Shown: positions 2,594 to 53,001 of the stretch, one piece after another | Numbering within the stretch: position 1 is the first letter of the stretch | How the letters are laid out: the number at the start of each line of letters is the position of its first letter | The notes under the pieces: model-generated | The model's database searches: none | What the model was told of the DNA's origin: nothing | What the model saw: only the letters and a program-made list of their open reading frames with translations | Translations under genes and position numbers: made by a program | DNA from: a virus | Lineage: Duplodnaviria > Caudoviricetes | Direction: 5' to 3' (one strand) | IMG/VR virus record: IMGVR_UViG_3300044961_000667 | DNA: 64,000 nucleotides

Positions 2594-3103
2594 TTACTTC
2601 GGGGCGGGCTTCGTCAGATCGCGATTGTTGTGCAGGTACGACGCGATTTGCTGGCTCATCGCGTACAACTGATTCGACAACCGCTTTGCGAACGCCTTGG
2701 CTTCGGGCACATCGCTGAACCGAGCCACCTGCGTGAGAGAGTGGGCCGCCTTGCCGTCGAACATCTCCACGCGGGCACGATCGAGAAAGTCATAGGTGTC
2801 CTTCGCGTCGTGGCCTGTCGCCTCGCCGAGGCTCTTGGACTTGCGCGGCCGGTTGCCGGGCGTGCTGGTCAGCTCGTCGTGAAGCTCTTCGAGCGCGCGA
2901 ATCGCGGCGTCGACCGGCGTCACGGAGATCATCGAGCCGAGCTTGCCCTTGTTGGCCCTCAGCTCCTTCACCATCTTCGCGACACGCCCCTCCCAGTTCG
3001 TGAGATCGGCGTCCAGGTCCTCCTTCACCGGGCGGCTACGCCCCGAGAGGCGGCTCTTCACGGACTCCAGGAGGGCGTTGGTCTTCTTCGGGTCCACGGG
3101 CAT
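2594..3103 (-). CDS. Hypothetical protein, LLESVK-leader family
   Basis: MPVDPKKTNALLESVKSRLSG…VKED…LGEA; GAGGAG RBS. Confidence 0.75.
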   Translation of the reverse strand: MPVDPKKTNALLESVKSRLSGRSRPVKEDLDADLTNWEGRVAKMVKELRANKGKLGSMISVTPVDAAIRALEELHDELTSTPGNRPRKSKSLGEATGHDAKDTYDFLDRARVEMFDGKAAHSLTQVARFSDVPEAKAFAKRLSNQLYAMSQQIASYLHNNRDLTKPAPK

Positions 3104-3109
3104 GTCTCC

Positions 3110-3169
3110 TCAGAAGCAGCAGCTATCACGATAGCCGCACTTGGGGCACTTGTCGTCTGTCGGCTTCAT
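3110..3169 (-). CDS. 19-aa mini-ORF duplicating the C-terminus of 3556-3753
   Basis: MKPTDDKCPKCGYRDSCCF*; ATG overlaps the endonuclease stop (ATGA). Confidence 0.5.
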   Translation of the reverse strand: MKPTDDKCPKCGYRDSCCF

Positions 3170-3552
3170 GCGACCCTCAATGCGTTGACGTTTGGACGAG
3201 GACGCTTGAGGTACGCCTCAGCCAATGGTTGGAGCCCTCGCTCCACGCCCCCAATGAACCAGTTGCAGAACGCACACAGCAGCCCTCTGACGTCACCGGT
3301 CTGATGATCGTGGTCGACATGCAGCAGCGCCCTGAAATTGCCAGGCAGTTTCTCTGGCGCCTTGCCGCAACAAGCACAGACTCCGCCCTGCTTTTCAAGC
3401 AGCGAGTCGTACACCTCGGCGGTGATGCCGTACCGCTTCTTCAGGGTGTGGGTCCGCTTGCGATCGTACGACGCCGCCATCCATCGCTCGTGACCGACTG
3501 GGTCACGAGCGATCCTGGCCTTGGTCCATCTGGCGTTCGTCGACTTAGTCAT
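3166..3552 (-). CDS. Endonuclease VII-family (His-Me) homing endonuclease
   Basis: RYGIT…QGGVCACCG…VDHDHQTGDVRGLLCAFCN. Confidence 0.9.
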   Translation of the reverse strand: MTKSTNARWTKARIARDPVGHERWMAASYDRKRTHTLKKRYGITAEVYDSLLEKQGGVCACCGKAPEKLPGNFRALLHVDHDHQTGDVRGLLCAFCNWFIGGVERGLQPLAEAYLKRPRPNVNALRVA

Positions 3553-3555
3553 GAC

Positions 3556-3753
3556 TCAGAAGCAACACGAGTCCCGATAGTGACACTTCGGGCAAATGTA
3601 GTGCGCGTGTTCGGGCTTCATCGTCGTCGAGCACTGGGGGCACGACGTCGACAAGTCGCAGCTCGCCGGCTTTTCTTCCGTCAGCACTCGCGCGTTCGAC
3701 GGCTGGCGCGAGCGCTGCGGAAGCTCCTCTGTGATCAGTCCCGGCTTTTGCAC
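3556..3753 (-). CDS. Small CPxC zinc-ribbon protein
   Basis: CPQCSTTMKPEHAHYICPKCHYRDSCCF; start uncertain. Confidence 0.6.
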   Translation of the reverse strand: MQKPGLITEELPQRSRQPSNARVLTEEKPASCDLSTSCPQCSTTMKPEHAHYICPKCHYRDSCCF

Positions 3754-3762
3754 CGGGCCAAT

Positions 3763-4080
3763 CTACGCGGCCTGGTTTTCAGATTCAAGAGCGTACTCCT
3801 TCAGAGCCAGCTCGACGGCCTCAGCCTGCTGCTCCGAGGTGTGCTGCTTGAAGTGCACCTTTCGCCGGCTGTGGGCGATGAGCTGGTACAGCCGACTGGC
3901 GTGCTGCTTCTCGGCTTTCAGCCGGGCGATCGTGCCAGGCGTGAACTTCTTGAACGTCGGGTCCCAGCTGCCGCTCTCCAGTCGCGGCTGATGCGACTCG
4001 CGGAGAATGCCCTTCAGCATCTTGATCTCCGCCTCGATGTCCTTCCGGTCCTGGTGCAGCTTCTTCAGGTTCAGCTTCAT
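3763..4080 (-). CDS. Hypothetical protein
   Basis: 105-aa ORF with AAGGAG RBS, tightly packed. Confidence 0.65.
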   Translation of the reverse strand: MKLNLKKLHQDRKDIEAEIKMLKGILRESHQPRLESGSWDPTFKKFTPGTIARLKAEKQHASRLYQLIAHSRRKVHFKQHTSEQQAEAVELALKEYALESENQAA

Positions 4081-4093
4081 GGCCTTCTCTCCT

Positions 4094-4420
4094 TCAACGA
4101 AGCAAGGAGAGCCGCCCGAGCGCCCTCCTCACGGTGGGGGTTCGGACGGTGGGCACGATGCCCAACGCCATGAGCGCGCCGTTGAAGGGCGCGTCGGGCT
4201 CTCTGATGGCTGTGTGCGGGATGCCGAGACGCTGAAGCTCGGCTTCGAGCCGAAGCAGCTCCTCCTCGTCGGAGACGGCAAGAGCAACAGCTCTGGTACT
4301 CGGGGGGACTTGCTCGCGGACGGACTCGCCGGCCGCGTGAATCGTCTGGGCAACCTGCACCCCTGGGGGCAGGTCTCGCCTCAAGACGACGTAGTGGTAC
4401 AGCGGCTCTTCGTTACAGCA
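4094..4420 (-). CDS. Peptidyl-tRNA hydrolase PTH2-like protein (no canonical start before the conserved N-terminal motif)
   Basis: PLYHYVVLRRDLPPGVQVAQTIHAAGE…ALAVSDEEEL…IREPD…LMALGIVP…LGRLSLLR. Confidence 0.75.
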   Translation of the reverse strand, partial: CCNEEPLYHYVVLRRDLPPGVQVAQTIHAAGESVREQVPPSTRAVALAVSDEEELLRLEAELQRLGIPHTAIREPDAPFNGALMALGIVPTVRTPTVRRALGRLSLLR

Positions 4421-4451
4421 CTACCTGGCTCAGCGACATGTGCTTCTCCTT

Positions 4452-4979
4452 TCAGCGCCCACGACGGGACTCGAACCCGCTTCGACGACGATGGGTTCTT
4501 TCAGCATGGCAGTTGGCACAAACAACCTCGCACTTCGCCAACTCCATTCTCACATCTTCCTCTGAACGGGCGTGGTTGACCATCCTCGACACGTCGTCTT
4601 GCTTCGTTCCCCTGACGTGATCAAACTGCATCACCCACGGCCCATACTGATGGCCACAGTCCGTACACGGCGTCGTGCTCTTGATCTCGTTGGCGATCTT
4701 GCGAAGCGTTTCACGCTTGATCGACTTGTACGCCCTGTTCTTGTCGACGTACTTCTGGTGATTGGAGCGGTAGTGCTTTCGCGAACCCTTCTGCATGCAC
4801 ACCCGACATCGCGAATGCCGCAGCGTCGGCTTCCTCTTCCAGTTGAAGTCGTCCTCTGACTTGAACCGTTCGCATCCGGAGCACCACTTCTGAACGCCCC
4901 CGGCGGGAATCGAACCCGCAACCCGTTCGCCTGTAGTCGGCGACAGCTCTGCCAGTTGAGCTACGGAAGCATCTTCCAC
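4452..4979 (-). CDS. HNH endonuclease whose reading frame runs through a tRNA-like sequence
   Basis: CSGC/CRVC, PCTDCG…FDHVRG…KCEVVCANCHAERT; the only plausible start (GTG 4979 after GGAG) precedes the tRNA at 4895-4970. Confidence 0.8.
   Translation of the reverse strand: MEDASVAQLAELSPTTGERVAGSIPAGGVQKWCSGCERFKSEDDFNWKRKPTLRHSRCRVCMQKGSRKHYRSNHQKYVDKNRAYKSIKRETLRKIANEIKSTTPCTDCGHQYGPWVMQFDHVRGTKQDDVSRMVNHARSEEDVRMELAKCEVVCANCHAERTHRRRSGFESRRGR
4456..4480 (-). pseudogene. 3' half (T arm + acceptor strand) of a split tRNA
   Basis: GCGGG TTCGAGT CCCGT CGTGGGC G; pairs 6/7 with acceptor strand at 5026-5032. Confidence 0.65.
4895..4970 (-). tRNA. tRNA-like gene with central CTA in a non-canonical anticodon loop
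   Basis: GCTTCCG/CGGGGGC acceptor, GCTC/GAGC D stem, TCGCC-GACTACA-GGCGA, GCGGG-TTCGATT-CCCGC; lacks U33 and purine 37. Confidence 0.6.
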
Positions 4980-4986
4980 ATCATCT

Positions 4987-5032
4987 CCGTCCACCTGTAG
5001 TCGGCGGTTGCTCGCCTATGAGCTACGAGGGC
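4987..5032 (-). pseudogene. 5' half of the split tRNA (same GACTACA loop)
   Basis: GCCCTCG TA GCTC ATAGGC GAGC AA CCGCC GACTACA GGTGG, no T arm follows. Confidence 0.65.
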
Positions 5033-5074
5033 CTGTTCCAACCTGAGGAGATCGTAACTCCTGCAGGAGTTTCG

Positions 5075-5305
5075 TCAAGTGACTGACTGCGCCGGCTCCT
5101 TGCAGTCGATGCAGTAGCCGCACGAGCCGCACCGGTACTTCACCCAAACGCCCTGCACCTTCGACACCCCCGCCGAGCGTCCGTCCTCCTGGCGCGTGAT
5201 GCCAGGCTTCTTGCACTGCGGGCAGATGCCTTGCTTCAGCTTCTCGTCGATCTGCTGACTCCATTCCTGGATGGCAGCGACAACGTCCTGAGGCGGCTCT
5301 TTCAC
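5075..5305 (-). CDS. Small zinc-finger protein
   Basis: CPQC…CGSCGYCIDC; AGGAG RBS. Confidence 0.6.
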   Translation of the reverse strand: MKEPPQDVVAAIQEWSQQIDEKLKQGICPQCKKPGITRQEDGRSAGVSKVQGVWVKYRCGSCGYCIDCKEPAQSVT

Positions 5306-5320
5306 TTCTCCTCCGTACCA

Positions 5321-5700
5321 TGGAGCTGCGGGGAATCGAACCCCGGTCCGAAAGCCTTCAGTCCTTCGACTCTACGTGCGTAGCCGCTGTCACCGCGGCC
5401 GAGTCCTGCTGCCCGCTGGTCTTTCCCCGCATTCGCCGAGCGGACTGGGCGGGGGCAACTCCTGGGTGGGTTTCGCCTCGCCAGCTACGCAGGAGCGCCT
5501 CGCTGGTTCGACGGAGAGCTAAGACTTTCGGTCCGCTCTCAAGCCCTGATCAGGGCAACCGCTCACGCGGCTGCGAGCATCGGGGCCGCCTCGACGTTGT
5601 CGTTGGCGGTTGTGGTTTCTCACTGGGATTTACGAGCACAGCGAGCTGCTCGGCACGCATCTCAGGTCGTCTTTGCCCCCGTCGAATCCAGTTCAGCCCC
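5321..5700 (-). ncRNA. ssrA: tmRNA, tag peptide ANDNVEAAPMLAAA
   Basis: 5' GGGGCTGAACTGGATTCGAC, 3' GGACCGGGGTTCGATTCCCCGCAGCTCCA; tag frame 5563-5607. Confidence 0.93.
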
Positions 5701-6080
5701 GTTCACTGCTTCCTTCAAGCAACGGCGATAGGCGCCCGTGCCGAACATCCGGTCGGTGCGCCCAACGCAGGGAGTTGTGGTCCCCCGCATCGCCGTCCTC
5801 ATCATCTCGCGCGTCGGTGTCGCCTGCACTTTTCGCACTGGCCCGTGCTGTCGAACACGCACAGCTCCTGATTCACACCGCATCCCACGTACTGCGCGAC
5901 CGAGTCGACGCGGAGCTGGGCTTCGTGGCCGCTCTCACGCGAGTCCGCTGCTCTCTGCGACTGCTCGTTCTGCGTCATGGGGGTGCGCCTTCTGTTCTTG
6001 GTCGAACTGACTGTCAAGATCATCAATGACACCAGTGGACAGTGTTCGTCAAGGGGAACCGGACAGCAGCGACAGTTTCT

Positions 6081-6146
6081 CGACCCGTCCAGGAGTCGAA
6101 CCCAGCACCACGCCCTTAGAAGGGGCCGGCGGATCCATCACGGGCC
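6081..6146 (-). tRNA. tRNA-Arg(TCT), truncated D arm
   Basis: GGCCCGT/ACGGGTC acceptor, CTTCTAA loop, T arm; only 66 nt. Confidence 0.55.
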
Positions 6147-6159
6147 TCAACAACAACAG

Positions 6160-6244
6160 CGGAGCGCCCGAGAGTCGAACTCGGCTGACCCGTGAAGGTC
6201 GTCGCGTTAGCAGTGCGATGCCGTCCCACGCTGGCTCACGCTCC
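6160..6244 (-). tRNA. tRNA-Ser(GCT)
   Basis: Cloverleaf, CTGCTAA loop, long variable arm. Confidence 0.85.
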
Positions 6245-6247
6245 ATG

Positions 6248-6335
6248 CGGAAAAGGCGAGAGTCGAACTCGCAGACCGCCCGAAGACGATCGTCCGCTTT
6301 CCAAGCGGGTGGGCTCACCAGTGCCCAGCTTCTCC
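6248..6335 (-). tRNA. tRNA-Ser(GGA)
   Basis: TTGGAAA loop, long variable arm. Confidence 0.85.
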
Positions 6336-6338
6336 ATG

Positions 6339-6427
6339 CGGAGCGGGTCCGAGTCGAACGGACAGCCCGCCTTTCGACGAGCAAGCGCTTTCGAGACGCT
6401 CTGACTTGCCTGTGTGCAAACCGCTCC
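6339..6427 (-). tRNA. tRNA-Ser(CGA)
   Basis: CTCGAAA loop, long variable arm. Confidence 0.85.
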
Positions 6428-6523
6428 AGAAACACCCTCAGATGACCGCCTGAGGGGCGCGGGGGCCTGTTGGCCGAGATGCCCCTAGCTGTCGCCAGTT
6501 CGTGAGCGTCTCGGGACGGCTTG

Positions 6524-6610
6524 CGGAAGACGGAGGACTCGAACCCCACACCCACTCGGGGTGCCGACCGCTTTCAAGGCGGGCCAGCGTCCATCACTGG
6601 TTCATCTTCC
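6524..6610 (-). tRNA. tRNA-Ser(TGA)
   Basis: CTTGAAA loop, long variable arm. Confidence 0.85.
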
Positions 6611-6611
6611 A

Positions 6612-6941
6612 TCACTGCGATCGCGGCTGATCGGCGTTCCAGACGGAGCGGCCCATCGCTCCCTCATCGGCCTCAGCGTTCTTCAACATCGAGTAGTAGT
6701 CCGGTCGCTCCTTCAGGTGCGCCCAGGCGATCTTCCCGATGTCGAGCAGGTCGTCAACCACGTCGGTCTCCGGGTCGACGTCATGCTCCGACTCAACCCC
6801 GAGACCGGCCGCGAACTCTCCGAGGTCGACCTGGCTCCAGTCGATCCCCAGCTGGTCGCCAACCCACTTCGCCAGCTCAGGGCTCCATGCCGGCGCCTCG
6901 CCGACCTCTTCCTTCAGCTGCCTGACGAGCTTCCTGAGCAT
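6612..6941 (-). CDS. DUF5661-like protein
   Basis: GLGVESEH…DD…KIAWAHLKERPDYYSML motif. Confidence 0.7.
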   Translation of the reverse strand: MLRKLVRQLKEEVGEAPAWSPELAKWVGDQLGIDWSQVDLGEFAAGLGVESEHDVDPETDVVDDLLDIGKIAWAHLKERPDYYSMLKNAEADEGAMGRSVWNADQPRSQ

Positions 6942-6981
6942 GCGGTGGCCTCCGGGCGCACAGTACACCCAGAGGCCACCC

Positions 6982-7524
6982 TCAGTCTTCCAGCTCGGTG
7001 TTCCAGTACGCCACCGAGGCGAGCCACTGCTTCCACGGCTCGGGCATGCCCTTCTTCCAGGTGAAGGTGAGCCGCACCGACTCGGGCAACGACTTCGGCT
7101 TCACCGGCACCTGCAGGAGCTTCATGCCTGCCTGCGCTGGCGTCCGACCGCCCTTCTTCTGGTTGCAGGGCGTGCACGACACCACGATGTTCTCCCACGT
7201 CGTGTGGCCGCCCTGCGTGCGCGGGACGACGTGGTCGTACGTGAAGTCGTGCCTGGGCACCTTCGCCGAGCAGTACTGGCACTTGCCCTTGTCTCGCGTG
7301 AAGACGTTCTCGCGACTGAACTTGATCGCCTTCTTCTTGCCGCGGATCGCCCGGAGGAACCGGATCACCGACGGCACCTTGAACTCCAACGTCATCGAGC
7401 GGACGGTCTTGTCCTCGTACTCCTCGACGACTTCCACCTTCTCCTCCCAGAGGAGGGTGATCGCCCGTTGCCAGCTCACGCGGGCAACCGGGGTGTAGCC
7501 AACATCGAGCACCAGCGTTTCCAC
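6982..7524 (-). CDS. HNH endonuclease (McrA-like bacterial family)
   Basis: LVLDVGYTP…SWQRAITLL…PSVIR…FSRENVFTRDKGKCQYC…TYDHVVPRTQGG…WENIVVSCTPCNQKKG. Confidence 0.9.
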   Translation of the reverse strand: METLVLDVGYTPVARVSWQRAITLLWEEKVEVVEEYEDKTVRSMTLEFKVPSVIRFLRAIRGKKKAIKFSRENVFTRDKGKCQYCSAKVPRHDFTYDHVVPRTQGGHTTWENIVVSCTPCNQKKGGRTPAQAGMKLLQVPVKPKSLPESVRLTFTWKKGMPEPWKQWLASVAYWNTELED

Positions 7525-7562
7525 GTTGCCCGTCCTTTCTGCGGCCTTCGCCGCGGTGAGTG

Positions 7563-7647
7563 TAGTCCCGGCCGGACTCGAACCGGCACGGCCTTTGTGG
7601 CCACTGGGGTTTGAGCCCAGCGCGTCTACCGACTCCGCCACGGGACC
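7563..7647 (-). tRNA. tRNA-Leu(CAA)
   Basis: CTGGG-CTCAAAC-CCCAG, long variable arm. Confidence 0.88.
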
Positions 7648-7652
7648 ATCTG

Positions 7653-7741
7653 TGCTCGGGGCGAGACTCGAACTCGCATGAGGCTTTCGCCCCACCGGCT
7701 TCTGAGGCCGGCGTGTCTACCGAAGGTTCCACCACCCGAGC
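7653..7741 (-). tRNA. tRNA-Leu(CAG)
   Basis: CCGGC-CTCAGAA-GCCGG. Confidence 0.88.
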
Positions 7742-7752
7742 ATGCACTTCAG

Positions 7753-7839
7753 TGGTCCGGGCGAGAGTCGAACTCGCATGATCTTTCGATCGGCAGGCTC
7801 TCAACCTGCTGTGTCTACCGGAGGTTCCACCACCGGACC
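7753..7839 (-). tRNA. tRNA-Leu(GAG)
   Basis: GCAGG-TTGAGAG-CCTGC. Confidence 0.88.
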
Positions 7840-7843
7840 AAAG

Positions 7844-7916
7844 TACCCGCTCTCGGAATCGAACCGAGCCCTCCGCCTTGTGAAAACGGCGCTCTCACCA
7901 GTTGAGCTACGCGGGC
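7844..7916 (-). tRNA. tRNA-Val(CAC)
   Basis: CCGTT-TTCACAA-GGCGG. Confidence 0.82.
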
Positions 7917-7920
7917 ATGT

Positions 7921-7990
7921 CGTGAGCCTGGGAGTCGAACCCAGCTGGGCGGATTATGAGACCGCTGCCTTCCCTCGATGGCTTGCTCAC
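7921..7990 (-). tRNA. tRNA(CAT), Met or Ile2
   Basis: GCGGT-CTCATAA-TCCGC. Confidence 0.75.
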
Positions 7991-7994
7991 GGAG

Positions 7995-8067
7995 TAGCAG
8001 GGGCTGGGATCGAACCAGCGTTCTCCAGGTTATGAGCCTGGCGAGATGACCTCTTCTCCACCCTGCA
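7995..8067 (-). tRNA. tRNA-Met(CAT), initiator-like (1:72 mismatch)
   Basis: TGCAGGG/CCCTGCT, CCAGG-CTCATAA-CCTGG. Confidence 0.8.
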
Positions 8068-8068
8068 G

Positions 8069-8142
8069 TACTCCCGGAGGGACTCGAACCCCCAGCCTCT
8101 TCGTTCGTAGCGAAGCGATCTGATCCGTTGATCTACGGGAGC
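8069..8142 (-). tRNA. tRNA-Arg(ACG)
   Basis: CTTCG-CTACGAA-CGAAG. Confidence 0.88.
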
Positions 8143-8154
8143 ATCAAACAACAG

Positions 8155-8228
8155 CGGTCTCGGCGGGACTCGAACCCGCGGCCTTTCGCTTCGGAGGCGA
8201 ACGCTCTCATCCACTGAGCTACGAGACC
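8155..8228 (-). tRNA. tRNA-Arg(CCG)
   Basis: TTCGC-CTCCGAA-GCGAA. Confidence 0.9.
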
Positions 8229-8230
8229 AG

Positions 8231-8303
8231 CGTTCCCGGAGGGACTCGAACCCCCGACTTCTCCGTTAGGACCGGAGCACTCTTCCAACTGAGCTACGGG
8301 AAC
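8231..8303 (-). tRNA. tRNA-Arg(CCT)
   Basis: CTCCG-GTCCTAA-CGGAG. Confidence 0.85.
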
Positions 8304-8309
8304 ATCCTG

Positions 8310-8380
<71 letters not shown>

Positions 8381-8779
8381 TCAACCAACCACGTACTTCT
8401 CAGCCAACTTCACACCGGACTTCTGACCGTTCTTGGCAGGCTCGACCCGAAGCTGCCCGCCAACGGCCCCAACCTCCTCGACCGGGACCAGATACACCGC
8501 ATCCAACTCTGGGCAGTGGACGCCGAAGAACTCGACCTCACCGCGGTACGACTTTCTCCCAGTCCCTCGGTGAGCCGAGTTGCTGCTGGTGTCGAAGACA
8601 ACCGCTCCATTCTTGAGCCGCCCAGTCTTGCACTGCACTCGCTGGAACCCGGCATCAGTGTCGATCACCAGGTCGTAGCGCTGGTTCTCTCCAATCGGGA
8701 GCAGCACCGTCCTCCCGGTCTTGAGCAACGCCGCCATCACCGCACCCTCTGTTCTCGTCCCCTGCGCCTTGGTGTTCAT
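8381..8779 (-). CDS. PD-(D/E)XK endonuclease (I-Ssp6803I / PDDEXK_5-like)
   Basis: G..TE…PIGENQRYDLVID…FQRVQCKTGR…YRGEVEFFGVHCPELDAVYLVP. Confidence 0.85.
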   Translation of the reverse strand: MNTKAQGTRTEGAVMAALLKTGRTVLLPIGENQRYDLVIDTDAGFQRVQCKTGRLKNGAVVFDTSSNSAHRGTGRKSYRGEVEFFGVHCPELDAVYLVPVEEVGAVGGQLRVEPAKNGQKSGVKLAEKYVVG

Positions 8780-8799
8780 GCTCCACATCTACCACACCG

Positions 8800-8841
8800 C
8801 TCGGACACCAGCCGAGTGCTCTGCCTTCGAGCTGCGGGGGC
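8800..8841 (-). pseudogene. 5' remnant of tRNA-Thr(GGT)
   Basis: GCCCCCG CA GCTC GAAGGCA GAGC A CTCGG CTGGTGT CCGAG, no T arm. Confidence 0.7.
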
Positions 8842-8845
8842 GCTG

Positions 8846-8918
8846 TGGATCTGGCCGGACTCGAACCGGCAACCTTCTGCGTGCAAAGCAGCCGCTCTCC
8901 CATTGGAGCTACAGACCC
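8846..8918 (-). tRNA. tRNA-Ala(TGC)
   Basis: TTTGCAC loop, G3-U70. Confidence 0.88.
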
Positions 8919-8923
8919 TTCAG

Positions 8924-8996
8924 TGGAACCGGCGGGACTTGAACCCGCCACCTCTCGCATGCGAAGCGAGCGCTCTCCCAGATGAGCTACGGCCCC
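8924..8996 (-). tRNA. tRNA-Ala(CGC)
   Basis: CTCGC-TTCGCAT-GCGAG. Confidence 0.88.
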
Positions 8997-9001
8997 AGGT
9001 G

Positions 9002-9072
9002 TGCGCGAGCAGGGAGTCGAACCCTGTCGTCTCCCGCGTCGGGGGAGTGCTCTACCGGTGAGCTACACGCGC
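9002..9072 (-). tRNA. tRNA-Val(GAC) with C33
   Basis: CTCCC-CCGACGC-GGGAG. Confidence 0.75.
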
Positions 9073-9161
9073 ATGGGCAGGCGGTGCTTTCGCCGAGCTG
9101 CCAGCAGTCACCACGTTCGTGACCCCGGCCCTGCTCGGTAGACTGCCACCTCTCCTGCTTG

Positions 9162-9234
9162 TGGACCCGGCGGGGATCGAACCCGCTACCTCTCGCATGC
9201 CATGCGAGCGCTCTCCCAAGTGAGCTACAGGCCC
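9162..9234 (-). tRNA. tRNA-Ala(GGC)
   Basis: CTCGC-ATGGCAT-GCGAG. Confidence 0.88.
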
Positions 9235-9326
9235 TAAGCGAGGCAGTTCGTAACGCTGCCTGCCCGGCTTTCCACCGGCGCGGGTTGATCAGACCCACGA
9301 GACTTGCCCGGAGCGACCGGGCCATG

Positions 9327-9399
9327 TGCCGTCCCTCGGAATCGAACCGAGATCCTCCGCTCTTCAGGCGGGTGCATGGACCACCACTGCCAAGACGGC
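9327..9399 (-). tRNA. tRNA-Phe(GAA)
   Basis: CCCGC-CTGAAGA-GCGGA. Confidence 0.82.
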
Positions 9400-9408
9400 G
9401 TACTTCAG

Positions 9409-9480
9409 CGGACCCGAACGGAATCGAACCGTCCTCGCCGGCGTGACAGGCCGGTCGCCTCACCAGATGCGTACGGATCC
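9409..9480 (-). tRNA. tRNA-Asp(GTC)
   Basis: CCGGC-CTGTCAC-GCCGG. Confidence 0.85.
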
Positions 9481-9485
9481 AACAG

Positions 9486-9568
9486 GGCGACTGGAGAGAA
9501 TCGAACTCTCACTGAGCTTTCGCTCGCGGGGTCACAACCCGCTGGGAACCCATTTCCCATCAGCCGCC
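9486..9568 (-). tRNA. tRNA-His(GTG) with long variable arm
   Basis: G-1:C73, GCGGG-TTGTGAC-CCCGC, GAGC-GAAA-GCTC variable hairpin. Confidence 0.8.
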
Positions 9569-9576
9569 AGAAGAAA

Positions 9577-9696
9577 TCTGCTCCACCCGAGTGAGGAAGG
9601 CATGAAACGGGTTTGAACCGTCTGGTCGATTTAGCAGATCGACTGATCACCAAGATCAGTAGTGCGTGTGAGCCATCCTCGGCCGGGTGGTGCAGA
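9577..9696 (-). ncRNA. tRNA-mimic-like structured RNA with extended closing stem
   Basis: D-like, anticodon-like and T-like hairpins closed by about 21 bp of interrupted terminal helix. Confidence 0.5.
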
Positions 9697-9697
9697 G

Positions 9698-9769
9698 TCC
9701 GCCGCAGTGGAATCGAACCACTTGCCTCTCGCTTATCAGGCGAGTGCTCTTCCAGTGAGCTACCGGCGG
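9698..9769 (-). tRNA. tRNA-Ile(GAT)
   Basis: CTCGC-CTGATAA-GCGAG. Confidence 0.82.
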
Positions 9770-9778
9770 GCACGTCAG

Positions 9779-9852
9779 TCAGGGTGGCTGGGATCGAACC
9801 AGCGACCTCCTGCATCCGAAGCAGGCGCGCTACCAGGCTGCGCTACACCCTG
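9779..9852 (-). tRNA. tRNA-Pro(CGG)
   Basis: CCTGC-TTCGGAT-GCAGG. Confidence 0.9.
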
Positions 9853-9862
9853 TTGAGTCAAG

Positions 9863-9899
9863 TCAGGTCGGCTGGGATCGAACCAGCGATCTCCTGCAT
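9863..9899 (-). pseudogene. 3' half of split tRNA-Pro
   Basis: AT GCAGG AGATC GCTGG TTCGATC CCAGC CGACCTG A. Confidence 0.8.
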
Positions 9900-10327
9900 C
9901 ACCAGACGTGGTCACTGGCCAGCAGGATGTTCTTCTTGGCCCCATTCGCGGGGGCCTCCAATCTCACATGCAGGATCGACTTCCCCTGGAACTCCTCAGG
10001 CAGGAAGGCCGTCACCACGTCCATCTCAGGCAGATACACCAGAAGCAGGTCAACCTCCCCGACCTCATACTTCTTGAACGACTTGTTGCTCGGTCCCACC
10101 CACGTCCTCAGAGCCACAGTCGCCACGCCGGACGAATGAGACGACTTGCCGCCTCCATACTTCGCTTGGGCCCGGATCAACCTAACACCATCATCCAGAA
10201 CCAGATCGTACCTGGCATCGGTTGTGGGCCGACTGACGACAAACCCCTTCTCAATCGCCCTCTGCTGCGCCTTCAGCGATGCCACTTCACCCTTCTGCCT
10301 GGTGTCCACTTCTCTTGCGTACCACAC
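9899..10327 (-). CDS. PD-(D/E)XK endonuclease (PDDEXK_5-like)
   Basis: KGEVA…VSRPTTDARYDLVLDDG…RAQAK…YEVGEVDLLLVY; paralogous to 8381-8779. Confidence 0.82.
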   Translation of the reverse strand: MWYAREVDTRQKGEVASLKAQQRAIEKGFVVSRPTTDARYDLVLDDGVRLIRAQAKYGGGKSSHSSGVATVALRTWVGPSNKSFKKYEVGEVDLLLVYLPEMDVVTAFLPEEFQGKSILHVRLEAPANGAKKNILLASDHVW

Positions 10328-10340
10328 AGGAGAACATCTG

Positions 10341-10412
10341 TCGAAGAGACTGGACTCGAACCAGCATCCTCACGGCCCCCAGCCGTGCGCTCCACCATTG
10401 AGCTACTCCTCG
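10341..10412 (-). tRNA. tRNA-Pro(GGG)
   Basis: CGAGGAG/CTCTTCG, CACGG-CTGGGGG-CCGTG. Confidence 0.82.
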
Positions 10413-10417
10413 TCACG

Positions 10418-10452
10418 CCCGAGCAGGCGCGGTACCACTCCGCTACGACCTG
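10418..10452 (-). pseudogene. 5' half of split tRNA-Pro
   Basis: CAGGTCG TA GCGG AGTGGTA CCGC G CCTGC TCGGG; pairs perfectly with 9863-9899. Confidence 0.8.
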
Positions 10453-10456
10453 AAAG

Positions 10457-10528
10457 TCTGGAAGGCGGGGATCGAACCCGCGACCTCTCGCGTCCAAGGC
10501 GAGCGCCCTACCGCTGGACTACTTCCAG
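10457..10528 (-). tRNA. tRNA-Pro(TGG)
   Basis: CTCGC-CTTGGAC-GCGAG. Confidence 0.85.
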
Positions 10529-10532
10529 TTGT

Positions 10533-10544
10533 GCAATCGATTGC
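10533..10544. promoter_or_regulatory. GCAATCGATTGC palindrome copy 3
   Basis: Exact 12-mer, 4 nt upstream of tRNA-Pro(TGG). Confidence 0.7.
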
Positions 10545-10552
10545 GTTCAAAA

Positions 10553-10712
10553 CTGTGCAGTGCGGACTGGCGGTTTGCACCCGCTGCACCGCATTGTCGG
10601 CCTGGCCTCAATAGGCCGCACGGTCCCACGCCGTCGAACGCCAGGACCTGCACCAACCACCGCCATGTTCGACCTGCCAAGCGGTGCCCGTTCATGCCGG
10701 GATGCTGCACAG
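10553..10712 (-). ncRNA. Candidate 160-nt structured RNA
   Basis: CTGTGCAG…CTGCACAG terminal helix followed by TTTT; several internal hairpins. Confidence 0.45.
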
Positions 10713-10784
10713 TACCCCGTACGAGAATCGAACTCGTTTCGCTCGCTTGAAGGGCGAGGGGCCTAACCAATGGCCGAACGGGGC
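10713..10784 (-). tRNA. tRNA-Glu(TTC) with C33
   Basis: CTCGC-CCTTCAA-GCGAG. Confidence 0.8.
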
Positions 10785-11119
10785 TTCTCTGCTCGATCAT
10801 GCGTCCTCTGCCGATGACAGTTGGCGCAGACCACTTCACATTTCTCGATCTCGGCTACGACCTTCTCAGGTCCGACACCGTGCCTCTTGAACTGCCCCAG
10901 GCTGAACTCCTTCCGACCCCTGACGTGATCAAAGTCCATCACCCATGGCGGATAGGCGACACCGCAGTCCGCGCACGGCCTGGACTTGGCTTTGTCGATG
11001 ATCGCCTTGATCGTCTCTTTGTAGGCCGCTGCCGCTCTGATGTACGAGATCTTGTTCTTCTCGTAGTGCCTGCGGCTGTACTCGGCCTGCTTCGACTTCG
11101 ACGGCTCTCTGAGCGGCAT
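10763..11119 (-). CDS. HNH endonuclease (paralog of 4452-4979)
   Basis: PCADCG…WVMDFDHVRG…KCEVVCANCHRQRT; stop lies inside tRNA-Glu. Confidence 0.85.
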   Translation of the reverse strand: MPLREPSKSKQAEYSRRHYEKNKISYIRAAAAYKETIKAIIDKAKSRPCADCGVAYPPWVMDFDHVRGRKEFSLGQFKRHGVGPEKVVAEIEKCEVVCANCHRQRTHDRAEKPRSAIG

Positions 11120-11129
11120 TCTTCGTCAT

Positions 11130-11198
11130 ACCACTTGACGAACCTTTCGTCACTCCACCTTGAAAGGGTGTCGGCCTCACCTGAAGCACCAACGGGGC
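11130..11198 (-). pseudogene. 5' remnant of tRNA-Glu(TTC)
   Basis: GCCCCGT…ACACC CTTTCAA GGTGG then a decayed T arm and no 3' acceptor strand. Confidence 0.7.
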
Positions 11199-11203
11199 TG
11201 AAG

Positions 11204-11274
11204 TACCGCGTACGGGTGTCGAACCCGTCTCACTGGGCTGAGAACCCAGGGACCTCCCGGAAGTCGAACGCGGC
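11204..11274 (-). tRNA. tRNA-Glu(CTC)
   Basis: CTGGG-TTCTCAG-CCCAG. Confidence 0.82.
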
Positions 11275-11280
11275 TTGAAG

Positions 11281-11353
11281 AGGCGGAGGCGGGAGTCGAA
11301 CCCGCTCGATGTCGGTTTTGCAGACCGATGCCTTCCCAGTTGGCTACTCCGCC
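11281..11353 (-). tRNA. tRNA-Cys(GCA)
   Basis: TCGGT-CTGCAAA-ACCGA, U73. Confidence 0.88.
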
Positions 11354-11375
11354 AGGGAAAGACGAGACTGTGCAC

Positions 11376-11732
11376 ATGAAGCGCGTGCTGTGCCTTGATG
11401 ACGACGACATGGTGGCCCGGCTCATCGCCGAGGTGGTCGAGTTCTGCGGACACGAGCCCGTTCGAGAGAGCGACCCGCTGAAGGCTTCCTCGGACCACCT
11501 CCACGACCGGAAGATCGCTGCGGTGCTCACCGACTACATGATGCCTCGCCTCGATGGCGTCGACGTTCTGGTGGTCTGGCAGGAGTCTCGACCCGAGGTG
11601 CGCCGAGTGCTGATCACCGCGGCCCCGAACGAGCCGGCGGTGAAAGAGGCCCTCCGCACCGGCGTCGCTCAGATGGTGATCGCTAAGCCTCCGACGATCG
11701 CCGACATCAAGATGGCCCTGGCCTGGCTCTGA
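11376..11732 (+). CDS. Single-domain response regulator (CheY-like receiver)
   Basis: RVLCLDDD…VLTDYMMPRLDG…VLITAA…IAKP: acidic pair, phospho-Asp, Thr, Lys all present. Confidence 0.9.
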   Translation: MKRVLCLDDDDMVARLIAEVVEFCGHEPVRESDPLKASSDHLHDRKIAAVLTDYMMPRLDGVDVLVVWQESRPEVRRVLITAAPNEPAVKEALRTGVAQMVIAKPPTIADIKMALAWL

Positions 11733-11733
11733 G

Positions 11734-12297
11734 CTACCGCTTCTTCCTCGCCAGTCGCTCCTCCAGCTGCTGAACCGACATCTGGATGGAGTCGTTGATC
11801 GACCGCATCATGTCCTGCCGGAGCTTGTACTCCAGCTCCTGCAGCTTCTTGTCGGAGGCGTCCTTCGACTCCTTCTCGCGCTGGCGGTAGTACTCACCCT
11901 GTTTCTCGATGCGCTGGTCCACCGCCTGCCGGATCTCCGAGACCGTTCCCTTCATGGCCTCGATGGCCGACAGCACCTGCTTCATCTCGGTCTGAACGTT
12001 GCCGACCGACTTGTCGATACCGGCCAGGGCGTCGCTCTGCTCGTCGAACTTGTCGTCGTGCTCGTCGAGCCGCTCTTCGGTCTTCTGCTTGTCCTTGTCC
12101 TCGCGGTCGACCGTCCGCGAGCCCAGCCACTTGACGAAGCCAACGACGGCTCCGATCAACTGGGTGACGACTGCTGCTCCGACCAGCAAGTACAGCCCGG
12201 TCAGCCCGTCACCTGCTGGCGCTGGCGGTGGGGTTGCTGCTGCGGCTCCTGCCGCCGCCGCCGCCGCCGGGCCCGCCGCCAAGATCAACAGGTTCAA
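11734..12297 (-). CDS. Membrane protein with coiled-coil tail (holin-like?)
   Basis: One hydrophobic helix LYLLVGAAVVTQLIGAVVGFVKWL followed by a long charged coiled coil. Confidence 0.6.
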   Translation of the reverse strand: MNLLILAAGPAAAAAAGAAAATPPPAPAGDGLTGLYLLVGAAVVTQLIGAVVGFVKWLGSRTVDREDKDKQKTEERLDEHDDKFDEQSDALAGIDKSVGNVQTEMKQVLSAIEAMKGTVSEIRQAVDQRIEKQGEYYRQREKESKDASDKKLQELEYKLRQDMMRSINDSIQMSVQQLEERLARKKR

Positions 12298-12300
12298 GAA

Positions 12301-12657
12301 CTACTCCTTGCTCGACAGATCGTCGTCGTCGTCGGGCTCTTCAGAGGGCACCGCCGACACCGGAGTCGCTGGCGGGAGGTTCACCTGCAGCTTGGCCGCA
12401 ATGGCGTCCACCACCTTCGACGTGTGCCGGCTTTCCATCTGCATCGACATCATCAGCTTCTCGCCTCGGAGCGTGCGCTCGTCGACATGCTTCACGGCGG
12501 TCTTCAGTGCCGCCAGGTCCTCGCCGAAGCCGGCCATTTTGGACCTCATCTCGTGCATGTCCTCTTCGAGCTTTGCCACTCGCGAGGCCAGGCTGATGGC
12601 CGTCGGCTTCCGCTTTCTTGGGGCCGTACGGAGGCCCCTCCCTCTGGTGTCACGCAA
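12301..12657 (-). CDS. Coiled-coil hypothetical protein
   Basis: Heptad pattern, basic N-terminus, acidic C-terminus. Confidence 0.6.
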   Translation of the reverse strand: MRDTRGRGLRTAPRKRKPTAISLASRVAKLEEDMHEMRSKMAGFGEDLAALKTAVKHVDERTLRGEKLMMSMQMESRHTSKVVDAIAAKLQVNLPPATPVSAVPSEEPDDDDDLSSKE

Positions 12658-12766
12658 AGTCGCTCTCCGAAGAAGCGGTCCACGGTCGTGGTTCTCTCAC
12701 GGCCTGCTGTTGGTTGACTGCTCCATCTTTCGCCCTCTTCTGGGCATCCGTCAACTGTCACTGATG

Positions 12767-12841
12767 CGTACCCTCTCGGAATCGAACCGAGCACCGTCGG
12801 CTTAACAGGCCGCTGCTATCAACCAGACCAGCTCAGGGCAC
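12767..12841 (-). tRNA. tRNA-Asn(GTT)
   Basis: CTGTTAA loop. Confidence 0.75.
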
Positions 12842-12847
12842 ATCGTA

Positions 12848-12918
12848 CTGGGGAGGAAGGGATCGAACCTTCTCCGTCGGCTTCAGAGACCGCTGCGCTA
12901 CCCTTGCGCCACTCCCCA
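12848..12918 (-). tRNA. tRNA-Gln(CTG)
   Basis: CTCTGAA loop, TGGGGAG acceptor. Confidence 0.85.
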
Positions 12919-12930
12919 ATGTCTTTCGCT

Positions 12931-12997
12931 CAGGGGCCCTGGGAATCGAACCCAGCTCGTCGGCTTCAAAGGCCGACTCACTCCCTGAGTACCCCTC
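12931..12997 (-). tRNA. tRNA-Gln(TTG), irregular
   Basis: TCGGC-CTTTGAA-GCCGA; short D region. Confidence 0.6.
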
Positions 12998-13001
12998 CAT
13001 G

Positions 13002-13073
13002 AGCGGGTGGCGAGGATCGAACTCGCGCATCCTGGGTTGGAAGCCCAGAGCCTTTCCGCTTGGCTACACCCGC
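13002..13073 (-). tRNA. tRNA-Gly(TCC)
   Basis: CTGGG-CTTCCAA-CCCAG. Confidence 0.88.
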
Positions 13074-13076
13074 ATG

Positions 13077-13147
13077 TACCGCCGCTGGGGATCGAACCCA
13101 GTCCCTCCGCTTAAAAGGCGGTTGCTCTACCCTTGAGCTACGACGGC
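13077..13147 (-). tRNA. tRNA-Lys(TTT)
   Basis: CTTTTAA loop. Confidence 0.85.
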
Positions 13148-13204
13148 GCGTGGACCTGCGCCGTCGCGTTTCATCTTCGTCTTCATCGTCGTCTCCTTGT
13201 CGAG

Positions 13205-13292
13205 TGGTGGGAAGGCTCGGAGTCGAGCCGAGCTGGGACGCAATGCCACCCGCTTTACAGGCGGGCCACGAGCCCTACGTGTCTACCTTCCC
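13205..13292 (-). tRNA. tRNA-Tyr(GTA), encoded CCA
   Basis: CCCGC-CTGTAAA-GCGGG, long variable arm. Confidence 0.82.
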
Positions 13293-13295
13293 ATG

Positions 13296-13366
13296 AGCGG
13301 CATCCGGGAATCGAACCCGGTTCAGTGGCCTGGCAGACCACGGCCCAACCAATAGACCAATGCCGC
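13296..13366 (-). tRNA. tRNA-Gly(GCC)
   Basis: GTGGT-CTGCCAG-GCCAC. Confidence 0.85.
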
Positions 13367-13448
13367 ATACGGCTTTGTCGCTGACGGCCGCGCAGATCCT
13401 CGTGCGGAATGCACGAAGGACTGAACGTCTGCCGGCGACAGAAGCCAG

Positions 13449-13519
13449 TGGGCCCTGAGGGGATCGAACCCTCTCCTGACGCTTAAGAGGCGCCTGCTCT
13501 ACCCTTGAGCTAAGGACCC
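13449..13519 (-). tRNA. tRNA-Lys(CTT)
   Basis: GGCGC-CTCTTAA-GCGTC. Confidence 0.87.
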
Positions 13520-13569
13520 AGATTCGGCCAGCCCGACTAGACGTCAGACAGGTGGCCGAACTGTCGCTG

Positions 13570-13590
13570 CTATCCAGTTTTCAGAGAACA
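13570..13590 (-). promoter_or_regulatory. boxA-like antitermination site
   Basis: TGTTCTCTGAAAACTGGATAG resembles the rRNA-operon boxA TGTTCTTTGAAAACT. Confidence 0.55.
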
Positions 13591-13599
13591 GAACTGCGA

Positions 13600-13673
13600 A
13601 GCACCAGGTCGGGCTCGAACCGACGACCTGCGGTTTACGAAACCGCTGCTGCTACCTGCTGAGCTACTGGTGC
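13600..13673 (-). tRNA. tRNA-Thr(CGT)
   Basis: GCGGT-TTCGTAA-ACCGC. Confidence 0.87.
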
Positions 13674-13677
13674 ACTG

Positions 13678-13751
13678 CACGGCGAGCAGGAGTCGAACCT
13701 GCAGCGTCGGGTTTTGGAGGCCCGTTCCCTTCCCGTTGGGGACTTCGCCGT
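13678..13751 (-). tRNA. tRNA-Trp(CCA)
   Basis: CTCCAAA loop, G73. Confidence 0.8.
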
Positions 13752-13811
13752 ATACCGTTGTTCCTTTCCTTTTGACGAAACATCCTCTCGAAGACTGACC
13801 TGCGGTGGTGC

Positions 13812-13853
13812 AGAAAAGCGAAAGGCCGGGACCCTTTTGGGGTGCCCGGCCTC
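13812..13853 (-). terminator. Intrinsic terminator-like hairpin ahead of the tRNA array
   Basis: AGGCCGGG…CCCGGCCT followed by TTCGCTTTT. Confidence 0.6.
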
Positions 13854-13879
13854 CGTGAGCGATCCAATGTGCTACTGGA

Positions 13880-14059
13880 TCAGGTTCTCATGGAGCCGGG
13901 CCGTCGGTGGTCGCTGGTACCCAGATTCTGCTCGGGCTGATAGGCGACCACGCTTTCGACGGACCAAAGGCACGAACGCAAAAACGCCGGTCGAGCGGCC
14001 ATGGCCGCCCCGGCGATTCGCTTCGTCAGCGCTTTGGTTGAGGTCGACATCGAAAGCAC
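13880..14059 (-). CDS. Small leader ORF (59 aa)
   Basis: AAGGAG RBS then GTG; lies between a promoter and a terminator. Confidence 0.45.
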   Translation of the reverse strand: MLSMSTSTKALTKRIAGAAMAARPAFLRSCLWSVESVVAYQPEQNLGTSDHRRPGSMRT

Positions 14060-14078
14060 GTGCTCCTTGATGTCCAGC

Positions 14079-14108
14079 AGAGTACCCACCTGACGAATTC
14101 GCCGTCAA
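14079..14108 (-). promoter_or_regulatory. Sigma70-like promoter
   Basis: TTGACG-N18-TACTCT. Confidence 0.55.
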
Positions 14109-14130
14109 GCACCTGACGACGATTCTTCGA

Positions 14131-53000: not shown

Positions 53001-53001
53001 C

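Follow-up and report, generated by a model that had tools for sequence, protein, structure and literature searches.

A 64,000-nucleotide stretch of DNA from a tailed phage (Duplodnaviria; Caudoviricetes; IMG/VR record IMGVR_UViG_3300044961_000667), hereafter called the window, contains on its minus strand a transfer RNA (tRNA)-like gene that is broken between the anticodon stem and the T arm by a cassette holding a complete tRNA and an HNH endonuclease gene. We conclude that this insert is probably a homing-endonuclease cassette of the free-standing kind, equipped with a substitute for the gene that it disrupts. Along the minus strand the locus reads promoter, 5' part of the outer tRNA, spacer, whole inner tRNA, HNH open reading frame (ORF), and T arm with the 3' strand of the acceptor stem (Table 1). 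A first reading made from the sequence without database searches (the sequence-only reading) had placed two tRNA halves at 4987-5032 and 4456-4480, paired at six of seven acceptor positions, around a complete tRNA with the same GACTACA loop and an HNH gene. Both halves are present, with borders that had to be moved to 5032-4991 and 4483-4456, and the acceptor stem does form six of its seven pairs, the remaining one being a U5-U68 mismatch. The enclosed tRNA was recovered by ARAGORN (anticodon CTA) and by the Rfam tRNA model (41.4 bits), and the gene next to it was confirmed as an HNH endonuclease by its match to phrog_2255. The same reading held that the cassette breaks a tRNA gene and brings a copy with the same loop; empty alleles, a second variant of the cassette and signs of selection all bear this out.

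We compared contigs from public sequencing runs over positions 3700-5800 and fetched further contigs by means of a neighbouring protein. An empty site was found in four assemblies (L128/L135, of 123.7 kb, L130/L137, L131/L138 and L133), in which 4991 is joined to 4483 via the bases GAG; in the 123,753-bp wastewater contig, for example, 4483 runs straight to 4991 with three other bases between them. This joint defines the insert listed in Table 1, which replaces GAG. Every relative that lacks the HNH gene has the two halves joined in an intact gene, the opposite of the separated halves that would have spoken against the sequence-only reading, and the four independent assemblies in which this uninterrupted allele occurs come from phages that are 99.7-100% identical to the window. 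Between 11867 and 4991 the L135 contig shows this level of identity throughout, apart from missing cassettes. Since the genomes are nearly identical except for the cassettes, the gain or loss must be recent and must have taken place within one phage population. The empty joint was seen in run X14, and in run X11 it was seen beside a filled contig; one bioreactor run contained the empty joint at a depth of 5.6 together with a filled contig at a depth of 6.5. The filled site is found in at least five assemblies, and in L126, L129/L136 and L132 this site is identical to that of the window. Near-identical DNA came from 13 studies, whose runs carry the labels hot-spring or mat, soil, bioreactor and wastewater. 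These observations show that the insertion is polymorphic in natural phage populations.

In the empty allele the gene is 73 nt long and adopts a cloverleaf fold (-30.4 kcal/mol) with the loop GACUACA and the U5-U68 mismatch already mentioned; it scores 35.8 bits with the Rfam tRNA model, above the family threshold. In L128, L130, L131 and L133 the first 42 bases of the intact gene are identical to the stranded 5' part of the filled allele, and the stranded 3' part, from the GCGGG of the T arm onwards, is the same in the intact gene and in both variants of the cassette.

The second variant was found in L001 and in a 568-nt contig of run X11, at the same insertion site. The 140 nt upstream and the 80 nt downstream of the cassette are identical between L001 and the window. 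Inside these identical flanks the two cassettes have diverged, which argues that the cassette is much older than its present flanks: 6 of the first 12 spacer bases differ, and so do 35.4% of the synonymous sites and 2.9% of the non-synonymous sites of the HNH body. Two old variants of the cassette are thus found in the same surroundings. The low ratio of non-synonymous to synonymous divergence (proportions of 0.029 and 0.354, ratio about 0.08) indicates that the HNH gene is under purifying selection and appears to have been kept functional. The inner tRNA differs at 2 of its 76 bases, and both of these lie in the variable loop; neutral sites in the vicinity differ at 35-50%, a contrast that indicates strong constraint on the tRNA at the nucleotide level. 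The filled allele occurs on two flank haplotypes: at three downstream single-nucleotide positions L132 agrees with the empty contigs, whereas L129 shows the alternative states.

The two variants also inform on the 3' border. No stop codon lies within the cassette, and the HNH ORF terminates in the target DNA, within the outer 3' remnant. Because L001 and the window differ by a 1-nt indel immediately ahead of the T arm, their HNH tails are read in different frames, and consequently the conservation of the T arm and of the acceptor 3' strand cannot be explained by protein coding.

The ORF at 4452-4994 matches phrog_2255 'HNH endonuclease' with an E value of 9e-27, and it also matches three other HNH PHROGs. 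No Pfam match was obtained for this ORF, and a sequence search of the PDB with the HNH protein gave nothing meaningful. In an alignment of 32 homologous sequences, residues C76, D78, D91, K97, C125, N127, C128 and H129 are invariant and H92 is nearly so; the motif C-x-N-C-H at 125-129 is thereby invariant, and two CxxC pairs are conserved. HNH homing endonucleases have a beta-beta-alpha-metal fold with a catalytic His, an Asn and a metal-binding His. The predicted model of the protein has a high mean confidence (predicted local distance difference test score of 95.8), and the structures it resembles most are those of HNH nucleases, though with weak scores: 4H9D (Z 5.1, Foldseek E 0.3) comes first, followed by T4 endonuclease VII, Cap5 and Cas9 HNH domains.

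The sequence-only reading had also stated that the HNH frame runs unbroken through the whole inner tRNA and that processing of this tRNA would destroy the HNH message. The frame is open as stated. An open frame is in itself weak evidence, as two of the three frames of the inner tRNA are open and one has a stop, and we rejected it as standalone evidence of translation. The position of the start was judged by comparing the two variants over the codons on both sides of the tRNA. The 32 codons from the inner tRNA to Met33 carry eight synonymous changes and one conservative non-synonymous change between the window and L001, and these changes fall in the zinc-finger stretch just after the inner tRNA. 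No in-frame ATG, GTG or TTG is found between the inner tRNA and the first CxxC, and the HNH homologues begin 3-8 residues ahead of this CxxC. On the other side, the four codons from GTG 4994 to GTG 4979 have undergone one synonymous and three radical changes and are unconstrained as protein. A purine-rich GGAG/GAGG core is retained 5 nt ahead of GTG 4979 in both variants despite the divergence of the spacer around it, and the gene caller chose GTG 4979 on L132, giving a protein of 175 amino acids. Because the codons after the tRNA are constrained, no later start is available and the stretch from 4994 to 4979 is unconstrained, we place the start of the HNH gene at GTG 4979, nine bases upstream of the tRNA. 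Judged from these codons, translation of the HNH gene crosses the inner tRNA. Maturation of the tRNA and synthesis of HNH would exclude each other on one transcript, because RNase P would separate the ribosome-binding site and the start from the body of the message. The second part of the statement thus gains support from the location of the predicted start, 5' of the inner tRNA.

The outer and the inner tRNA match at 56 of 76 aligned columns (74% identity), and neither copy is more than 70% identical to any other tRNA of the array. They have in common a 13-nt identical block across the anticodon arm, and pair 27-43 shows a compensatory C-G to U-A change. These similarities lead us to regard the two tRNAs as paralogues. 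Every base of the variable region, which lies beside the insertion point, differs between them. Both stranded parts have the sequence of the intact allele and it is the inner copy that is diverged; its minimum-free-energy fold is a cloverleaf (-34.2 kcal/mol). The window has exactly two occurrences of the 12-nt word GCCGACTACAGG of the anticodon arm, where 0.2 are expected in 64 kb, and the empty contig L135 has the outer copy only in 16.8 kb; on these grounds each genome has exactly one intact copy of the GACUACA-loop gene. The inner tRNA is presumed to be functionally equivalent to the outer one.

These are unusual tRNAs. The loop G-A-C-U-A-C-A of both copies has A33 and C37 in place of the canonical U33 and purine 37, two bases instead of one separate the D and anticodon stems, and CCA is not encoded. 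The features of a canonical elongator or suppressor tRNA are lacking from the GACUACA-loop tRNAs, despite their scores with the Rfam model. ARAGORN called the intact outer gene tRNA-Cys(ACA). We rejected this call, which requires mismatches in the anticodon stem and a D arm of poor quality; the GACUACA loop was retained for the outer gene because it appears in the minimum-free-energy fold, because the inner copy cannot fold as Cys(ACA) and because the normal fold is shared and carries the compensatory change at 27-43. Recoding of TAG as the reason for the CUA anticodon was also rejected, since TAG ends 15 of the 89 long minus-strand frames and TAG-interrupted frames are not in excess. Two distant relatives, in which PTH2 is about 50% identical, also have tRNA-like genes near the PTH2 gene (L124:6960-7036 and L125:4969-5046). 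Their 9-nt anticodon loops, ACUAUUCAG and ACUAAUGAC, have ACUA in common with GACUACA, and ARAGORN called them Asn(AUU) and Ile(AAU).

The promoter upstream of the outer tRNA is the sole promoter-like site in 4000-5400, where 0.2 are expected, and its sequence is the same in all relatives with the exception of one spacer base in L130. In the filled allele, transcription of the inner tRNA and of the HNH gene would also depend on this outer-tRNA promoter. One RNA-seq library yielded contigs that cover 3700-4966, 4042-4966 included, and the transfer-messenger RNA (tmRNA) and none over 4978-5261, a stretch that comprises the spacer, the outer 5' part, the promoter and a zinc-ribbon gene. Such contigs prove neither expression nor processing; the gap is compatible with processing that creates a 5' end at the inner tRNA.

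Table 1. Features of the nested HNH locus and further blocks of the window that are missing from the near-identical contig L135.
Feature	Position	Strand	Description	State in L135
Sigma-70-like promoter	5051..5078	(-)	TTGACG, 16 nt, TACGAT; ~20 nt upstream of outer tRNA	
Stranded 5' part of outer tRNA	4991..5032	(-)	Acceptor GCCCTCG, D arm, anticodon arm CCGCC/GACUACA/GGUGG	
Inserted cassette	4484..4990	(-)	507 nt, HNH gene and inner tRNA; three bases GAG instead in the empty allele	Intact outer gene
Spacer	4971..4990	(-)	20 nt; Shine-Dalgarno-like GGAG 4988-4985; predicted HNH start GTG 4979-4977	
Inner complete tRNA	4895..4970	(-)	Loop GACUACA; presumed replacement copy	
HNH endonuclease ORF	4452..4979	(-)	175 codons, starting at GTG 4979; inner tRNA covers codons 4-29; last ~10 codons and stop in or just after the outer 3' part	
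Stranded 3' part of outer tRNA	4456..4483	(-)	End of variable region, T arm, acceptor CGTGGGC, discriminator G	
Block in tRNA-Pro(GGG)	10417-9901		tRNA-Pro(GGG) and PD-(D/E)XK gene in the anticodon loop of another tRNA-Pro(GGG)	Exact join, intact tRNA-Pro(GGG)
Block at tRNA-Thr	8813-8381		PDDEXK_5 gene and a recoded tRNA-Thr 5' part; 28 nt of the former 5' end left stranded	Intact tRNA-Thr beside tRNA-Ala
Endonuclease VII gene	3554-3157	(-)		Absent

Comparison of the window with L135 revealed four blocks that are missing from L135 (Table 1). Two of them resemble the HNH cassette. The second nested cassette spans 9863-10452 on the minus strand, with its inner tRNA-Pro(GGG) at 10412-10340, and the corresponding join in L135 brings TCGGG directly next to ATGCAGG. 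In the tRNA-Thr cassette region (8309-8845, minus strand), the stranded 28-nt 5' end of tRNA-Thr(GGU) lies at 8841-8814 and the intact tRNA-Thr has its first 28 bases recoded; L135 has a single tRNA-Thr directly after tRNA-Ala(UGC). Together these joins indicate that the two cassettes, in tRNA-Pro(GGG) and in tRNA-Thr, follow the same apparent logic with unrelated nucleases. The fourth block, which holds the endonuclease VII gene, is found in L129 and L132 but not in L128/L135, L130 or L131. L135 also has about 100 bases between tRNA-His and tRNA-Asp (L135:1866-1967, near 9484 of the window) that are not in the window.

Other members of the HNH family were examined in their own surroundings. 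The four homologues sampled (L139, L140, L142 and L143) all lie in the tRNA arrays of other phages, where they abut or overlap whole tRNA genes, and we consequently rejected the nested layout as a general property of the family. A paralogue at 10712-11200 (minus strand) is 48% identical, lacks the N-terminal zinc finger and is also found in the HNH-poor relative L135. On one side of it is a 5' fragment of an older tRNA-Glu(UUC) that breaks off in the T loop, and on the other a diverged but intact tRNA-Glu(UUC).

We propose the following course of events. Ancestrally, the tRNA array would have contained a 73-nt tRNA-like gene with the non-canonical CUA-centred loop GACUACA and its own promoter. 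A 507-nt cassette made of spacer, diverged tRNA paralogue and HNH gene would have entered this gene at a point after the anticodon stem and before the T arm. It appears to have come without a promoter of its own, and in transcripts from the outer promoter the stranded 5' part would serve as a leader. The inner tRNA would be released by RNase P and by 3' processing, so that the phage would stay supplied with the GACUACA-loop RNA. Synthesis of the HNH protein would require transcripts that still contain the inner tRNA, and its expression would be low because the start GTG 4979 lies upstream of the tRNA and only uncut transcripts can be translated. In a co-infection HNH would cut the intact allele near the junction of variable loop and T arm, and the break would be repaired from the cassette-bearing genome via the perfectly matching flanks. 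In the filled allele the predicted target site is destroyed by the insertion itself, and the inner copy may escape cutting because every variable-region base by that site differs. This specificity of cleavage and this resistance of the inner copy are predictions.

Since near-identical phages carry the gene unbroken and the insert brings its own copy, the cassette would occupy an RNA gene through replacement and not through self-splicing. That the cassette needs to bring along the odd GACUACA-loop RNA suggests that this RNA is of importance to the phage. A broader proposal, to which we give somewhat less than an even chance, is that the turnover of phage tRNA arrays is due to a general class of homing cassettes that compensate for their own damage, in which unrelated nucleases (HNH, PD-(D/E)XK) would each be accompanied by a cleavage-resistant whole or partial copy of the broken tRNA gene. 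If this is true, nuclease-driven invasion, beyond codon demand alone, would shape the tRNA alleles of phages and leave isoacceptor clusters and stranded fragments behind. In the present cassette the HNH message would in addition be gated by tRNA processing: removal of the start codon by RNase P would act as a built-in limit on the dose of nuclease, a feature not known from other homing endonucleases.

Several observations weigh against a homing cassette with a built-in replacement. Cleavage of the intact allele by HNH is a prediction. The junction does not look like a clean cut-and-paste, as the filled allele is without the three bases GAG of the intact gene and the bases of L001 next to the T arm differ as well. 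The four other family members lie between tRNA genes, so that the usual target may be the border of a tRNA and the nested insertion may have been a one-off illegitimate event. The mosaic pattern may partly reflect recombination among co-infecting phages and not homing driven by the nuclease. Finally, the tRNA is an odd one, with its A33, C37, additional base before the anticodon stem, missing CCA and Cys(ACA) call.

The first three of these observations also speak for the most serious alternative, in which the cassette is a passenger: it would have been inserted by a single illegitimate event and spread or lost by ordinary homologous recombination, and HNH would act elsewhere, for example at tRNA borders or in packaging. 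We consider this unlikely. A passenger does not readily account for two variants with 35% synonymous divergence at exactly the same site in identical flanks, for the nested design that is seen again, with nucleases of unrelated types, in two further tRNA genes of this array, or for the strong purifying selection on HNH.

An alternative of a different kind is that the outer tRNA is restored at the RNA level, as in an intron-containing or split tRNA, either by a ribozyme or by RNase P and RNase Z cuts followed by an RNA ligase. In its favour, the halves are undecayed relative to the intact allele, and one of the proteins of the phage has a LigT/2H phosphoesterase domain. The first point has another explanation, since an insertion that is recent, as the identity of all the flanks indicates, would leave its target undecayed. 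Against it, no group I or group II intron family of Rfam matched 3000-15000, even at E values up to 1, and the insertion lies after the anticodon stem and not in the anticodon loop as for group I introns. The insert is fully occupied by the tRNA and the ORF. Pairing between its ends is no better than in shuffled sequences (best duplex of -12.6 kcal/mol in the window and -14.0 kcal/mol in L001, equalled by 16-18% of shuffles), so that the bracketing complementary sequences of split tRNAs of the Nanoarchaeum type are not found beyond chance. Moreover, the GAG of the variable loop is missing from the filled allele and the bases beside the T arm are changed in L001. We regard restoration of the outer tRNA at the RNA level as very improbable.

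Hardly credible at all is a deletion polymorphism, with the nested form ancestral and the intact gene produced by deletion of the insert: presence and absence alone give no direction, but a perfect cloverleaf with a normal variable loop would need to be recreated, and this three times in one genome because L135 also has intact tRNA-Pro(GGG) and tRNA-Thr, while loss by recombination with an empty allele, which is possible, presupposes that allele.

The genome that hosts the cassette is that of a myovirus-like phage of roughly 200 kb and high G+C content. Its G+C content is about 63%, all long ORFs are on the minus strand, among them those for a tail sheath and a tape-measure-like protein, 39 tRNA genes and a tmRNA form an array at 4.9-13.8 kb, and contigs with the same proteins reach 200 kb. 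Searches for more distant copies of the locus were negative: megablast of 3000-9000 against 50,697 phage records gave no match, a 14-base anticodon-arm pattern gave nothing but chance matches in IMG/VR, a pattern of arm plus T loop gave none in IMG/VR and one chance match (L122, not a tRNA) in JGI metagenome contigs, and the zinc-ribbon neighbour used as bait in IMG/VR brought up no real relative.

Some other features of the neighbourhood were recorded. A region at 7753-7839 (minus strand), missed by ARAGORN, scores 44.4 bits with the Rfam tRNA model; it adjoins two tRNA-Leu genes and its length suggests a class II tRNA. The PTH2-like gene at 4384-4440 (minus strand) has no canonical start before the conserved LYHYVV, where the relatives L124 and L125 have ATG or GTG, and in L001 (760-1200) a T5orf172/MUG113-like gene is inserted exactly there, between GAGCCGCTG and the LYHYVV codons. 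The LigT-domain protein is encoded at 51210-53081 (minus strand) and has 623 amino acids with a 2'-5' RNA ligase / LigT 2H-phosphoesterase domain (E value of 5e-14); the phage that encodes it also encodes the tmRNA and the PTH2-like hydrolase.

Selfish nuclease genes are thought to persist in essential genes mainly by means of self-splicing introns or inteins. Homing endonucleases occur inside group I introns of bacterial and phage tRNA genes, where the insert lies in the anticodon loop and self-splicing restores function. As in that case, the cassette described here is a nuclease element that occupies a tRNA gene while tRNA function would be kept; unlike it, the insert lies in the variable region, no ribozyme was found with Rfam, and function would be restored by a second copy of the gene. 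Prophages, integrative and conjugative elements and islands integrate into tRNA genes via integrases and att sites, and carry the displaced 3' end only. They likewise bring sequence that keeps the target tRNA whole and leave a stranded fragment, whereas the cassette has no integrase and consists only of a 0.5-kb nuclease gene and a whole tRNA. It would be a natural and well-documented example of a third route, here into an RNA gene, which is to break the gene and bring a spare. Public data supply the empty site, two old variants, both forms in one sample and selection on both cargo genes. As the stranded halves spell out the target, pairs of nuclease and target site could be discovered in this way in uncultured phages. 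The case also suggests how tRNA alleles may be swapped between phages, and a possible coupling of tRNA processing to nuclease expression.

Our literature search found no paper describing a whole tRNA copy and a nuclease nested in their target tRNA gene. The locus has several characteristics of a free-standing homing endonuclease, namely an HNH family member whose ORF is under selection, present in some phages and absent from others, without intron or intein housing. It also has several of those of the fungal mitochondrial mobile ORFs, as it carries a copy of its target, this copy is diverged, and the native parts are stranded and the same as in cassette-free relatives. Homing endonucleases have been found between gene pieces before, in 'fractured genes', which have split inteins and a free-standing endonuclease between the two halves of the gene (PMC2677866). 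The arrangement of a homing endonuclease gene between two pieces is similar; the halves of the fractured genes so described are rejoined by protein trans-splicing, whereas nothing rejoins the halves here.

SegB of T4/T6 is closer. It is described as a free-standing GIY-YIG homing endonuclease of a tRNA cluster that cuts inside tRNA genes and drives preferred inheritance of its region (PMC2330249 as cited in PMC13096335), with a cleavage motif, RAWTSGAAC, found at sites that include tRNA genes themselves (PMC13096335). In our own reading, the other strand of this motif resembles the conserved GTTCGA of the T loop. Both are free-standing nuclease genes in a phage tRNA array, and the insertion described here also lies beside a T arm. 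SegB is located between genes, depends on co-conversion of flanking markers and has no nested replacement tRNA, whereas the present cassette lies inside a tRNA gene and encodes an HNH protein.

The carried copy has its parallel in fungal mitochondria. Mobile ORFs in atp6 of Allomyces macrogynus and in atp6, atp9, cox2 and nad3 of Glomus carry a foreign C-terminal copy of the gene they invade (PMC3630166). Like the phage cassette, they combine an endonuclease ORF with a diverged copy of the displaced part and leave the native part stranded and identical to that of cassette-free relatives, and their ORF may run in phase into the native sequence (PMC3630166). They differ in that they invade organellar protein genes and replace the 3' portion only, whereas the phage cassette invades an RNA gene, brings a whole copy and leaves both 5' and 3' remnants stranded. 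In all, T4 SegB and the fungal mitochondrial mobile ORFs are the nearest published precedents, and the case described here combines both ideas for an RNA gene of a phage.

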